This document shows, piece by piece, positions 1,122-58,076 of a stretch of DNA of 64,000 bases. Under the pieces are notes generated by a model. The model had not been told where the DNA came from, made no database searches, and saw only the letters and a program-made list of their open reading frames with translations. The stretch's first letter is position 1, and the number at the start of each line of letters is the position of its first letter. The translations under genes and the position numbers were made by a program. Where the stretch lies: the IMG/VR virus record IMGVR_UViG_3300046786_000293, positions 64,001 through 128,000 of that record; one strand, written 5' to 3'. Source of the stretch: a virus (Duplodnaviria > Caudoviricetes).

Positions 1122-1442
1122 TTATACTCTAAAACTTTCTCCGCAACCACAACGGTCACGTTCATTGGGATTCCGAAATTCAAATCCCTCATTTAATCCG
1201 TTTCTTACATAGTCTATTTCTAACCCTGCCAGATAAGGGCAACTTTTTGGATCTACAAATACTTTACAACCATTACAATCAATACATTGATCTTCGGGGC
1301 CGGGATTGTCTACGTATTCTAGCACATAAGCTAAACCACTGCAACCAGTTGTTTTTACCCCCACTCGAAGTCCAACACCAGAACCGCGTTTAGCAAGTTG
1401 CTGTTGAATCTTTTTAGACGCTGTGTTTGTTACGGTAATCAT
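1122..1442 (-). CDS. iscA: Fe-S cluster assembly A-type carrier IscA (HesB family)
   Basis: GCSGLAY and C-terminal CGCGESF; start refined to ATG 1442 (MITVTNTA). Confidence 0.95.
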   Translation of the reverse strand: MITVTNTASKKIQQQLAKRGSGVGLRVGVKTTGCSGLAYVLEYVDNPGPEDQCIDCNGCKVFVDPKSCPYLAGLEIDYVRNGLNEGFEFRNPNERDRCGCGESFRV

Positions 1443-1809
1443 TAACTGCGGCCTTGATAGCATCTTCGGCAAGAATAGAGCAATGTATCTTCACAGGCGG
1501 AAGGGCTAGTTCTTCTGCGATTTCTGAGTTTTTAATTGAGCTAGCTTGGTCAAGAGTCTTTCCTTTGACCCATTCAGTAACGAGGCTACTGGACGCGATT
1601 GCCGATCCGCAGCCATACGTTTTAAATTTCGCATCTGTAATAATACCTGTAACATTGTCTACCTTTATTTGTAATTTCATCACATCGCCTATCTAACCAC
1701 ACGCTGGGGCGCCAACCATGCCAGTCCCAACGTGCGTGTCCTCCTTATCAAATGATCCCACATTTCTGGGATTTTCGTAATGATCAATTACTTTATTACT
1801 GTATGCCAT
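1414..1809 (-). CDS. iscU: Fe-S scaffold IscU interrupted by an in-frame TAG within a 9-nt insertion (recoded gene or pseudogene)
   Basis: From ATG 1809: MAYSNKVIDHYENPRNVGSFDKEDTHVGTGMVGAPACG-TAG-IG-DVMKLQIKV...YGCGSAIAS...LPPVKIHCS; TAG at 1695-1693 is codon 39; removing 3 codons gives a canonical 128-aa IscU. Confidence 0.9.
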
Positions 1810-2398
1810 AGTGTTCTCCCGTTATAGCAAAAATGATCGAATCGGGTTGATACGAATGCCATTTTAATCTATTGTCCTCTCCCTTTAAAAATTGTATATT
1901 CTTTTTACTTCCAAGTAAAGATGCAGGTATACCTAATTCAAAACCTTGTTTAATTGGAATTATGTGATCTATTTGAAGACTAAATTTATGTTTTCCGAAT
2001 CTTGGAATAAAATTTCCGGCGGCTTTTAATTCTTTTATAGACCTATATGTAAATTTCCTAACTTCACTTTTGTATAAAATGTATTCGTTATTGATTTCTT
2101 TCTTAGGTCTTAAATTGTTAAGTTTTCCATCTGCATTAGGGTTATTTTTAATCCACCGCTGGCGTTGCAACTCATTAGGTTTTCCTTTATTCCAGCCATG
2201 GCCTTTTTTCAATCCTTCAAGGTTTAATAATGATTTTTGTTCGTCAGTTAGTTTTAAGCCTTTATTCCATGCAACATTGCCCGGACGATTAATTGGATTT
2301 TTACACGAAGTTGAGCAATACATCAAAAATCTAGGCTTTGTTACAAATTGTTTTTTGCAGTGGAGGCAAATATTTTCTAGACCATATTTGTTTTTCAT
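1796..2398 (-). CDS. Free-standing HNH homing endonuclease with Zn-finger and NUMOD3-like (WNKG) motifs
   Basis: CLHC...CSTSC, AWNKG/GWNKG, C-terminal QIDHIIP...KNIQFL...N HNH motif; 3' end overlaps the iscU start. Confidence 0.8.
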   Translation of the reverse strand: MKNKYGLENICLHCKKQFVTKPRFLMYCSTSCKNPINRPGNVAWNKGLKLTDEQKSLLNLEGLKKGHGWNKGKPNELQRQRWIKNNPNADGKLNNLRPKKEINNEYILYKSEVRKFTYRSIKELKAAGNFIPRFGKHKFSLQIDHIIPIKQGFELGIPASLLGSKKNIQFLKGEDNRLKWHSYQPDSIIFAITGEHYGIQ

Positions 2399-2403
2399 AC
2401 AAA

Positions 2404-2410
2404 TATTTAT
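2404..2410 (-). promoter_or_regulatory. T4-type late-promoter-like ATAAATA motif (recurs before many structural genes)
   Basis: ATAAATA just upstream of starts here and at 4938-4944, 5438-5444, 7996-8002, 14525-14531, 43738-43744; exact TATAAATA on + strand at 29801-29808 before ORF 29814. Confidence 0.65.
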
Positions 2411-2432
2411 CTAGGTGCGCTTGCTTGTGGGT

Positions 2433-2807
2433 TTACTTTTGTCTACGCTTCATGGCGCTCTTAGCCATGTTAGAGACTGTTTGTGCTGGATTGTCAACTG
2501 TTCCAAAATCATCATCTGGATTAGTAACAGTAGAATAACTATCAGTTTTGAATACTATCTCGTCGCCGGCCATTTGTTTAACGATATTTTTCATAGCAGG
2601 AATTTCTTCGTTGGCGGCTTTTAGATCCTCTAATCCAAAACTAACTAGCCCAGTATTTTGGATTAGACGTACAATAAATTGTGCGGGCAATTTCGATTGC
2701 AGTTCGCCTTGGTCAATTTTACTCTTGACGAGACTTAACACGGTGACAATCTTTGAATGAATCTCACCGGTTTCCGAATCTTCAAGAATAAAATCACTTG
2801 CTCGCAT
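2433..2807 (-). CDS. Hypothetical phage protein
   Basis: 124-aa ORF in tightly packed operon. Confidence 0.75.
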   Translation of the reverse strand: MRASDFILEDSETGEIHSKIVTVLSLVKSKIDQGELQSKLPAQFIVRLIQNTGLVSFGLEDLKAANEEIPAMKNIVKQMAGDEIVFKTDSYSTVTNPDDDFGTVDNPAQTVSNMAKSAMKRRQK

Positions 2808-3481
2808 TAACGACGCTCTCTGCCTAGGTCTTCTTCTCCGCCAGCGGCTGCGTCGGCTGCACCAAATCCATTGTCTTGATCTAAATCATTTAGCTCAGGA
2901 CTGGGCAACTCTCCGCCCATGTCGTCTATAGGAGCGCCGCCCATGGCCATTGGCTCAGCAACTTGCTCTCCTGCTAATGCTCGGCTTCCTTGATCTAGAC
3001 TGTCGCGGGCACCATTTAGTGCATCCATCAGCCCTTGTAGTGCGGCTGTAGCAGTTTGTTTAAATTGGTCGGCTTGTGCAGCACCTAATTGATCGCGGAT
3101 TGTATCTAGCAATGGAGGAAGTTCTTCGTTCATCATCTTGCTAGCATCAGTAATCATATCCTGAATGCTGTCTACCATGTCTTTAGCGGCTAGTACTGCT
3201 TCTGCAGTTTCTAATTCGCCTTCCATCAATGGATTGTGCTGATCTAACCATGCATTTAGGCCTTCGCGAACCATAAGCATTTCCATATACTTAGGATTCT
3301 TTTCTGCTGTGTGGGCACCGTAACTTTTACGGATAGCATTTAGGTTTTCGCCAAGAGCAATATTTAAACGCTGTGCTTTTGCATAGGTTAAATTATCATA
3401 GTTAATAGCAAAACCAAAGCGGCTTTCCATTACTTTGTTTAGACGCTTTGTGGTCTGTGGTGCTAGTTCTTTTAGGTTCAT
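2807..3481 (-). CDS. Hypothetical coiled-coil protein with acidic tail (possible head scaffold-like)
   Basis: 224 aa, helical, acidic Gly-rich C-terminus; function is inference. Confidence 0.7.
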   Translation of the reverse strand: MNLKELAPQTTKRLNKVMESRFGFAINYDNLTYAKAQRLNIALGENLNAIRKSYGAHTAEKNPKYMEMLMVREGLNAWLDQHNPLMEGELETAEAVLAAKDMVDSIQDMITDASKMMNEELPPLLDTIRDQLGAAQADQFKQTATAALQGLMDALNGARDSLDQGSRALAGEQVAEPMAMGGAPIDDMGGELPSPELNDLDQDNGFGAADAAAGGEEDLGRERR

Positions 3482-4002
3482 AATATTCTATCCCAGATTT
3501 TATTATATTTAGCAGATAACAATCTTTTTTCTAATTCTTGACGCGCCAAATTAAACTTAGACTTAGATTCTAAGTATCTACTACGCCATAATTGTGCTTT
3601 AAATTCATCTGTTTTTTTATTAATTTTAGATATTTTATCTGTAAAAAAATCAAAATCAGTACTGGCAAATACCAAATTTTTGTCTGCTGTTAGCAATATA
3701 TCTGCGCTGTTATACAGTTTCATTCGTTCAAATACTGCATAGTACATTGCAGCTTGTTTACTGTAAAAATTATGCACAAATCTATCTTCATTGAACAGGG
3801 ACCAACAATGGGTCCCTTTATTTTTAATAGTAAAATTTCCAATGATCCAAGATTTATTTGTTATTTGTAGACAAACAGGAAACTGTTGGTCGTACCTTAA
3901 ATTTGTAAATTCTTTTGCTGCCCAAGTATCAATTTTACGAATTGCTAATTCGATTAAAAATTTACCTAGGTCGCTTTTTATAGATGATTCGGCCGTCTTC
4001 AT
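3478..4002 (-). CDS. Hypothetical protein
   Basis: 174-aa ORF, start/stop overlap with neighbours. Confidence 0.75.
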   Translation of the reverse strand: MKTAESSIKSDLGKFLIELAIRKIDTWAAKEFTNLRYDQQFPVCLQITNKSWIIGNFTIKNKGTHCWSLFNEDRFVHNFYSKQAAMYYAVFERMKLYNSADILLTADKNLVFASTDFDFFTDKISKINKKTDEFKAQLWRSRYLESKSKFNLARQELEKRLLSAKYNKIWDRIL

Positions 4003-56005: not shown

Positions 56006-56081
<76 letters not shown>

Positions 56082-58001: not shown

Positions 58002-58076
58002 ATGGAGCGGCGTGCGAGAATCGAACTCGCGACTTTAGCTTGGAAGGCTAAGGTAATACCATTTTACGAACGCCGC
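58002..58076 (-). tRNA. tRNA-Gly(UCC)
   Basis: Loop CUUCCAA, U73, CCA. Confidence 0.92.

Follow-up and report, generated by a model that had tools for sequence, protein, structure and literature searches.

How can a gene be expressed when a stop codon sits within its most conserved stretch? The question is raised by iscU, which encodes an iron-sulfur scaffold protein in a giant freshwater phage and lies on the minus strand of the 64,000-nucleotide (nt) stretch of DNA analysed here (the window; positions 64,001 to 128,000 of IMG/VR virus record IMGVR_UViG_3300046786_000293). The record represents a 338.5-kilobase (kb) phage with 39% G+C and an estimated completeness of 97%, in which iscU is single-copy. 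The minus-strand junction sequence is GCG TGT GGT TAG ATA GGC GAT GTG ATG, and translation with the extra bases left in gives MAYSNKVIDHYENPRNVGSFDKEDTHVGTGMVGAPACG*IGDVMKLQ.... An earlier note, made from the letters of this DNA, had described these bases as a 9-nt Gly-stop-Ile-Gly insert that a short ribosomal hop would skip to give a product of 128 amino acids (aa). Both the insert and the product length are borne out by the sequence: the Pfam NifU_N model spans both iscU halves (residues 2-129, expectation value (E) 1.3e-52 with the stop masked), and skipping the 9 nt joins 38 and 90 residues into 128 aa bearing the IscU/NifU_N hallmarks C37, D39, C63 (in YGCGS), LPPVK and HC. Because the insert is lacking from GAPACGDVM in 77 of the 80 closest IMG/VR iscU loci, the 9 nt represent a true insertion, and the remaining three loci carry GGT TAG TTA GGT at the same position. 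We propose that the gap is probably skipped by a programmed Gly-to-Gly bypass (a ‘stop-hop’) from the take-off codon GGT to the landing codon GGC, driven or assisted by refolding of a messenger RNA (mRNA) hairpin just upstream.

The insert is not an assembly artefact, the first concern that the earlier note had attached to it. An independent DNA assembly (X3) yielded a 296-nt contig covering window positions 1651-1946 with 0 differences and the same insert, and a 22.6-kb contig from another study (X4) carries the same 9 nt in a 97%-identical strain. A metatranscriptome record of 151 nt (X18) is likewise identical to positions 1566-1716 including the insert, with a flank of only 21 nt on one side. 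No joints or deletions were found at the insert site in any of the sequencing runs compared. A contig from an independent freshwater sample (X7) matches the window over positions 1657-1689, up to the landing codon, and is then insert-less, with …GCT TGT joined directly to GGC GAT…. This is the insert-less allele of a relative, and both iscU forms therefore co-occur in nature in the same kind of water.

The window allele belongs to a family. IMG/VR was searched by DNA pattern scans and by a nuclease-protein search free of any iscU-motif constraint, which yielded 69 distinct insert-bearing haplotypes, all with the insert at exactly the same site; after redundancy removal the comparison comprised these 69 and 75 insert-less haplotypes. 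The inserts fall into 25 sequence classes of five lengths (6, 7, 8, 9 and 10 nt), and nearly all alleles share a common form, in which a Gly codon is followed by a stop codon (TAG, TGA or TAA), 0-4 nt, a second Gly codon and Asp. The stop lies directly 3' of the first Gly codon in 23 of the 25 classes, while the second Gly codon lies directly 5' of Asp39 in 24. The 6-nt form is GGT TAG GGC, and the 7-nt forms include GGT TAA C GGA, GGA TGA C GGA, GGC TGA C/G GGC, GGT TGA A/G GGC and GGT TAG A GGA/GGC. Inserts of 8 nt read GGA TGA CA GGT/GGC, GGC TGA CG GGC or GGT TAA CT GGA, those of 9 nt follow GGT/GGG TAG NNN GGN with TTA, ATA, AAA, CTG, CCT, CTA or CTT as NNN, and those of 10 nt read GGT TAG AACC GGC or GGC TGA ATTA GGT. 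Some classes use the same Gly codon for take-off and landing (GGA/GGA, GGC/GGC and GGT/GGT). A relaxed scan that required neither Gly codon added one decayed allele (L188) and otherwise returned only chance matches in unrelated genes. The insert pattern gave no cellular example among 185,579 bacterial and archaeal species genomes, where the matches were due to chance or to a normal iscU read through an upstream look-alike, and four distant iscU matches in cultured-phage records were uninformative. Of the Gly-stop-(0-4 nt)-Gly sites flanked by open frames in the window’s own genome, a scan found a strong hairpin at iscU alone.

These lengths bear directly on mechanism. Suppressor read-through is excluded as a shared mechanism because 7, 8 and 10 nt are not multiples of three. 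By contrast, a Gly-to-Gly hop would restore the exact wild-type sequence in every class with both Gly codons (24 of 25), and no other single mechanism accounts for inserts of 6-10 nt with the form Gly-stop-(0-4 nt)-Gly.

A hop of this kind predicts that the sequence beyond the stop is translated, and the downstream half of the gene behaves like coding sequence. The landing-frame open reading frame (ORF) extends for 84-97 codons in nearly all complete insert alleles, as in insert-less alleles, and about 74 of 75 complete alleles have no break in the downstream frame. Pairwise ratios of nonsynonymous to synonymous substitution rates (dN/dS) for this half are 0.097 with the insert and 0.101 without it, so that the relaxed selection which the earlier note had named as a refuting outcome is not seen; for the upstream part the values are 0.135 and 0.079, respectively. 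These ratios point to purifying selection on both iscU halves. In 37 distinct junctions from an unbiased set, the codons 3' of the gap vary synonymously only (Gly as GGA, GGC or GGT; Asp39 as GAT or GAC; Val40 as GTA, GTC, GTG or GTT), so the Gly, Asp and Val codons appear to be translated. In contrast, variants of the spacer codon in 9-nt inserts specify four different amino acids (Leu, Ile, Pro and Lys).

The strongest recoding signal, which the earlier note had missed, is a hairpin located 5' of the gap. In the window it spans iscU codons 25-38, its 3' arm extends as far as the first G of the take-off codon, and its minimum free energy (MFE) is -22.4 kcal/mol. A hairpin of 11-16 base pairs (bp) ending at the take-off codon is present in every insert allele and in no insert-less allele. 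Folding of 48-nt segments that finish at the take-off codon gave a median MFE of -24.6 kcal/mol for insert alleles versus -10.8 kcal/mol for insert-less alleles (Mann-Whitney p = 2.5e-22), and the z-scores against synonymous-codon shuffles were -3.96 and +0.15, respectively. Folding of the whole region (121 nt) gave a z-score of only -1.6, the hairpin being clear only by comparison of insert with insert-less alleles. An ungapped alignment of 41 insert alleles (A2) showed 95.5% of cells paired when stem columns 11-26 were set with columns 32-49, as compared with 32-40% in slid controls. The column pairs 15-45 and 18-42 each display 4-5 pair types, and neither is unpaired in any of 35 distinct insert sequences: third positions of the His/Gln and Ala36 codons combine as CG (16), AU (15), UA (3) and GC (1), and those of the Val and Pro35 codons as UA (20), CG (8), GC (3), UG (3) and GU (1). 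In 72 insert-less sequences the same two column pairs are paired in just 13 and 26. Such compensatory changes argue against mere ancestry as the explanation for the hairpin.

Across alleles, a Shine-Dalgarno-like AAGGAG(G) motif sits 3-7 nt 5' of the stem, conserved in either of two codon registers (AAG GAG GA and AAA GGA GA); GGAG occurs in 64 of 68 insert alleles versus 1 of 75 insert-less alleles. Both the hairpin and AAGGAG occur in all 14 insert alleles that lack the neighbouring HNH-like nuclease gene described below and in none of the 8 insert-less haplotypes that bear it, indicating that these two elements track the insert rather than the nuclease.

The short-hop interpretation in the earlier note is thus supported and extended by 69 alleles, five insert lengths, the selection data and the hairpin. 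We infer the following sequence of events for the window allele. The ribosome would decode Gly38 at GGT and bring the slowly decoded TAG into the A site, whereupon the peptidyl-tRNA-Gly (tRNA, transfer RNA) would release its take-off codon and the mRNA would slide by 9 nt. The tRNA could then re-pair with GGC, and decoding would resume at Asp39 to give the normal 128-aa IscU. The stop often stands in the weak context of stop+C, which might ease the unpairing of peptidyl-tRNA-Gly. Refolding of the hairpin probably drives the slide or makes it one-directional: at take-off its 3' arm, the 11 nt directly 5' of the P-site codon, would be inside the ribosome with the 5' arm outside, and each nucleotide of forward slide would allow one more base pair of the stem to form behind the ribosome until the anticodon meets the next GGN. 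The AAGGAG located 5' of the hairpin may represent a further conserved signal.

The tRNA genes of the phage were considered both as partners of such a hop and as a source of competing read-through. The tRNA-Gly(GCC) that the earlier note had singled out as the tRNA reading both Gly codons is indeed encoded in the window and could be the hopping tRNA, but the link is not general among relatives, as tRNA-Gly(UCC) is the sole tRNA-Gly of the complete relative G001 (with GGT TAG TTA GGT) while tRNA-Gly(GCC) is the sole one of the complete relative G004 (with GGA TGA CA GGT). The genome additionally encodes an amber-reading tRNA(CUA) that scores 36.1 bits against the Rfam tRNA cut-off of 29 and is intergenic, away from the tRNA cluster. 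Two other ARAGORN predictions are recorded in passing: a tRNA-Ile(TAT) of 92 nt at window positions 55287-55378 on the minus strand, with its anticodon at position 31 and long for class I, and a phage tmRNA-like (transfer-messenger RNA-like) gene with a long basic tag at G000:C1:5387-6021, also on the minus strand.

The amber-reading tRNA lends some substance to a scheme of mixed recoding, in which inserts of 6 and 9 nt would be read through, those of 7 and 10 nt resolved by a +1 shift and those of 8 nt by a +2 or -1 shift, leaving IscU longer by 1-3 residues at the Gly38-Asp39 junction. Few long ORFs in this genome end in TAG (12 of 292), and in several of these the TAG is followed directly by TAA or TGA; the 9-nt spacer codon is Leu or Ile in five of seven variants, and an A-site stop followed by C (TGA C or TAA C) stimulates known +1 frameshifts such as that of prfB. 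We nevertheless consider this scheme unlikely. It would demand three mechanisms at one site among close relatives, the Gly codons are non-slippery for +1 or +2 re-pairing (GGN to GNU), and the extra peptides (D/E/N/R/V-G; T-G; X-L/I/P/K-G; R-T-G; E-L-G; X-G) would be placed in the invariant cluster-ligand loop of a protein whose remainder has a dN/dS of 0.1. Moreover, the TAG-type 9-nt insert is carried by G001, a complete 348.7-kb relative whose 25 tRNAs include no tRNA(CUA). Five complete relatives have no DNA match to the tRNA(CUA) gene, and no CUA anticodon was found among the Rfam-detected tRNAs of G001 and G004; a suppressor tRNA as the general partner was rejected, tRNA(CUA) not having been found in relatives. 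Two whole-genome tests, one merging ORFs with TAG, TGA or TAA as sense and the other comparing coding potential on both sides of every TAG, revealed no other convincing in-frame TAG in the coding regions of the window’s genome. Genome-wide TAG recoding was also rejected, the top candidates besides iscU being antisense, low-complexity frames without starts.

Three further explanations dispense with recoding altogether. A split IscU, with termination after Gly38 and re-initiation at GTG or ATG (Val40 or Met41) to give cooperating fragments of 38 aa and 88-89 aa, has the attraction that re-initiation is frame-independent and explains all insert lengths; GTG ATG lies 9-12 nt past the stop in the window with an 89-aa ORF starting there, the ATG at residue 41 is kept in most alleles, and the preceding GGNGAT is weakly Shine-Dalgarno-like. 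However, four alleles (L226 and L230-232) have residue 41 as Leu and lack any in-frame ATG, GTG or TTG within 20 codons after the gap while keeping an intact and conserved downstream frame, and re-initiation cannot make the C-terminal part of these alleles because there is no in-frame start. The synonymous-only variation of the Gly, Asp and Val codons between the stop and Met41 also tells against it, Asp39 would be lost from both fragments, and the second Gly codon and the 5' hairpin would be left without a role, so that we regard a split protein as improbable. Still less probable is that iscU is no longer functional and that the inserts are endonuclease repair scars kept for blocking further cuts. 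The insert does bring a stop and often a frameshift, the 7-nt inserts resemble the outcome of error-prone repair in that six bases seem duplicated and one added (GGA T GAC GGA GAC), the downstream frame of L120 is shortened, and a stop-less insert class together with L188 may be decaying. This pseudogene reading is rejected because downstream dN/dS matches that of insert-less alleles; the downstream frame is also open in almost every complete allele, the stop, both Gly codons and the hairpin are kept across diverged lineages with compensated hairpin pairs, and nuclease-less insert alleles retain all signals. Finally, the 6-10 nt might be removed from RNA by splicing or editing, or be absent from part of the DNA population, with ordinary translation following. 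A hairpin could in principle guide RNA processing, but this one is confined to the 5' side of the insert instead of flanking it on both sides, the metatranscriptome record (with its short flank on one side) holds the insert unchanged, and no run compared showed joints or deletions at the site. To our knowledge no bacterial or phage system removes 6-10 nt, and we give this explanation the least credence of all.

Several observations weigh against the programmed hop as proposed. The hop is derived from sequence comparison only. The third base of the two Gly codons differs in many classes (GGT/GGC, GGT/GGA, GGA/GGT and GGG/GGT), and re-pairing would therefore often rest on two of three bases. One 7-nt class, GGT TGT T GGA, lacks a stop at its 7 loci yet keeps the hairpin and the downstream frame. 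Leu is encoded by four of the seven spacer codons in the 9-nt class, which hints weakly at translation of the spacer in that class. In the window’s phage, tRNA(CUA) may allow the 9-nt insert, which is in frame, to be read through in competition with the hop, as a by-product or even as the dominant route. One ancestral cassette may also underlie all insert alleles, in which case their shared features would partly reflect ancestry. As to the stop-less class itself (L107, L117, L127, L135, L161, L248 and L249), its flanks are nearly identical to those of the GGT TAG TTA GGT class, and L188 (GGT TGT TGA C) looks like a further-decayed form of it.

Why such a gap should be kept may be explained by the gene next to iscU. 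The overlap with the iscU start that the earlier note had reported for an HNH gene holds (14 nt), whereas its HNH identity is only probable. The 200-aa ORF has no significant Pfam HNH match, but alignment of its family (A1) shows an N-terminal zinc finger (CxxC...CSxxC), WNKG (NUMOD-like) repeats and a C-terminal DH...N...N motif, and weak matches to HNH were obtained with phrog_1271 ‘HNH endonuclease’ (5e-4) and with Pfam HNH in 2 of 19 family members (E 0.0014). An AlphaFold model reached a predicted local distance difference test (pLDDT) score of 77; Foldseek found nothing in the PDB at E<=0.001, its best rows being McrA, Gme HNH, Cas9 HNH and colicin DNases, all with E > 0.5. A PDB sequence search with the nuclease profile gave nothing significant and a zinc-ribbon likeness to L24e only. 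The ORFs upstream of iscU form one family, with 47 of 48 in a single BLAST cluster, and their proteins differ by about 50% across diverged lineages. As a side observation, the family member at L160:1953-2702 (plus strand) has a DUF559/Vsr-like domain replacing the HNH part while the zinc finger and WNKG are kept, and it adjoins the 10-nt insert GGC TGA ATTA GGT.

This gene is tightly linked to iscU. All 74 HNH homologs found adjoin iscU directly on its 5' side, and the 613-bp nuclease cassette of the window is absent from three syntenic insert-less relatives (L029, L043 and L074). The co-occurrence of insert and nuclease anticipated in the earlier note holds among close relatives, in which an HNH homolog is found at 53 of 75 insert loci versus 0 of 76 insert-less loci, but it is not strict farther out, where 8 HNH-bearing haplotypes lack the insert, all of them with substitutions within GAPACGDVMK. 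Every HNH-bearing allele thus has an altered GAPACGDVMK site, through either an insert or amino-acid substitutions, a pattern that fits self-immunity. The window iscU is itself mosaic: it shares 81-92% identity with insert alleles in its first 114 nt and 70-77% in its 3' part, the latter being nearest to insert-less alleles (83-85%). In the iscU tree the window allele stands beside an insert-less allele with 95% support, and insert presence needs at least 10 changes. Mosaicism and patchiness fit homing with co-conversion up to the gap, followed by nuclease loss in some carriers. We suggest that the gap, lying in the most conserved iscU stretch, most likely protects its allele from the neighbouring HNH-like nuclease, and that the nuclease gene and the 5' 114 nt of iscU with hairpin and gap would move jointly into the insert-less iscU of related phages. 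On balance, we lean towards a wider view in which AAGGAG, the hairpin and Gly-stop-(0-4 nt)-Gly would form a portable RNA cassette of ~60 nt that directs efficient hops of 6-10 nt, with its hairpin as mechanical driver and a stem length matching the hop length; such a cassette would be a minimal bypass element, would define the first stop-hop family known from nature and would have evolved to confer immunity as one half of a homing cassette.

Table 1. Features of the iscU locus and tRNA genes referred to in the text (window positions unless another record is given)
Feature	Position	Strand	Remarks
iscU	1809-1414	minus	reads GAPACG-TAG-I-G-DVM; 9 extra bases at the invariant Cys-Gly-Asp site
iscU segment 1 (Met1-Gly38)	1696-1809	minus	ends in take-off codon GGT (1698-1696)
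Stop codon TAG after take-off codon	1693-1695	minus	stop here in 23/25 insert classes
Spacer ATA, proposed to be untranslated	1690-1692	minus	position varies among 9-nt alleles
Landing codon GGC	1687-1689	minus	Gly codon in 24/25 insert classes; variation synonymous only
iscU segment 2 (Asp39-Val128 + TAA stop)	1414-1686	minus	frame open; dN/dS like that of insert-less alleles
RNA hairpin	1698-1736	minus	iscU codons 25-38; 5' arm 1736-1726, 3' arm 1708-1698
Shine-Dalgarno-like AAGGAGG	1740-1746	minus	3 nt 5' of hairpin base
HNH-like (His-Me finger) candidate free-standing homing endonuclease, 200 aa	1796-2398	minus	overlaps iscU start by 14 nt
Nuclease cassette	1820-2432		613 bp replacing the 23-bp spacer between the upstream gene and iscU; blastn break points
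iscA (A-type Fe-S (iron-sulfur) carrier)	1122-1472	minus	overlaps iscU end; Pfam Fe-S_biosyn E 2.3e-20
tRNA-Gly(GCC)	56006-56081	minus	possible hopping tRNA
tRNA-Gly(UCC)	58003-58076
tRNA(CUA), amber-reading	G000:C1:183606-183679 (L002:5606-5679)	plus	outside the window; ARAGORN

Downstream of iscU lie iscA, which is context outside the cassette, and then a gene for a PD-(D/E)XK exonuclease. A different element was noted in five IMG/VR loci (L200-L204, iscU at ~2090-3490), whose HNH-bearing iscU has no hop insert but contains an in-frame insert of ~1 kb after ‘TYGC’ (the Cys63 ligand) with a Hint-module match; it is intein-like and resembles a second mobile element at another iscU ligand codon.

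For decades, T4 gene 60 and its homologs have been essentially the only natural case of programmed bypass in bacteria or phages, alongside the byps of yeast mitochondria, and no description of iscU bypassing or of natural stop-hops was found in the searchable literature. If our reading is true, about 70 natural variants of a far simpler bypass element become available. They would amount to a natural mutational series with five gap lengths, three stops, matched and mismatched Gly pairs and compensatory hairpin mutations, suited to testing how the ribosome is advanced by mRNA that refolds behind it. They would also provide a second, independent pairing of a homing endonuclease with a bypass, suggesting a general evolutionary route beyond T4. 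Given that gene callers will split or discard such genes, a hairpin followed by Gly-stop-Gly can serve as a search pattern.

Two groups of phages invite comparison on the side of mobility and code use. Free-standing homing endonucleases of the Mob and Seg types in T-even phages target a neighbouring conserved gene, and immunity is usually provided by silent substitutions, an intron or an intein. The iscU locus likewise has a small nuclease ORF between conserved genes that is patchy in close relatives, an adjacent conserved gene that is altered in carriers, and a co-conversion mosaic around the site. Immunity at iscU would instead come from a micro-insert that translation skips and, in distant relatives, from changed amino acids. 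As in code 15 phages with suppressor tRNAs, the window’s genome has a tRNA(CUA) and avoids TAG terminators; unlike them, it has no genome-wide in-frame TAG, and its relatives use TGA or TAA and frame-breaking insert lengths.

The closest parallel is T4 gene 60, the bypass of which, together with the MobA homing endonuclease, is said to have been described by Huang et al. in 1988 and Bonocora et al. in 2011. In the published model the ribosome takes off from and lands on Gly codons, a UAG lies next to the take-off codon, a stem loop stands on the 5' side, and pairing of the mRNA as it leaves the ribosome drives the movement forward (10.1101/2024.12.09.627546); the 5' and extended stem loops are thought to drive bypass one way, with help from the UAG beside GGA and a mini-Shine-Dalgarno sequence (10.1101/2024.12.09.627546; PMC5009743). 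The proposed iscU element similarly would take off and land on Gly codons, has a Shine-Dalgarno-like motif, places a gap thought to be protective in a conserved gene beside a free-standing homing endonuclease gene, and behaves as a whole like a mobile cassette. The two differ in layout. Whereas the gap of gene 60 is 50 nt, that of iscU is 6-10 nt, polymorphic with 5 lengths among relatives, and leaves no room for an A-site or extended stem loop. The gene 60 stem loop lies 9 nt upstream and its Shine-Dalgarno sequence 6 nt before the landing codon, as compared with an iscU hairpin that abuts the take-off codon (0 nt) and a motif located 5' of the hairpin. The third bases of the iscU Gly pair often differ, and the upstream peptide is conserved IscU sequence in which no nascent-peptide signal was identified. 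The gap interrupts iscU rather than the gene for a topoisomerase subunit, and the two cassettes share no homologous sequence. The iscU element would thus work like the gene 60 bypass without being homologous to it.

Short hops and short gaps also have precedents elsewhere. Synthetic constructs have established stop-hops that use 9 nt for a single amino acid (PMC5009743), and synthetic E. coli stop-hops are attributed to Weiss et al. 1987 and O'Connor et al. 1989 (PMC5009743; 10.1101/2022.08.31.505936). As would be the case for iscU, these hops are frame-independent, +5 and +6 being reported there; they are, however, artificial, unstimulated and of low efficiency, whereas the iscU arrangement is natural, conserved and selected, with a dedicated hairpin. 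The byps of Magnusiomyces capitatus mitochondria (Lang et al. 2014) are, as reviewed, inserts of 27-55 nt that are bypassed at 81 sites in a genome with relaxed decoding, reportedly in a context-independent manner (PMC5009743). Like the iscU gaps, byps are short non-coding inserts whose take-off and landing match is not always perfect, but they have no link to a homing endonuclease. No natural in-frame stop-hop was known to a 2016 review (PMC5009743). The iscU family would probably be the first set of short stop-hops found in nature, one that travels with a homing nuclease gene.

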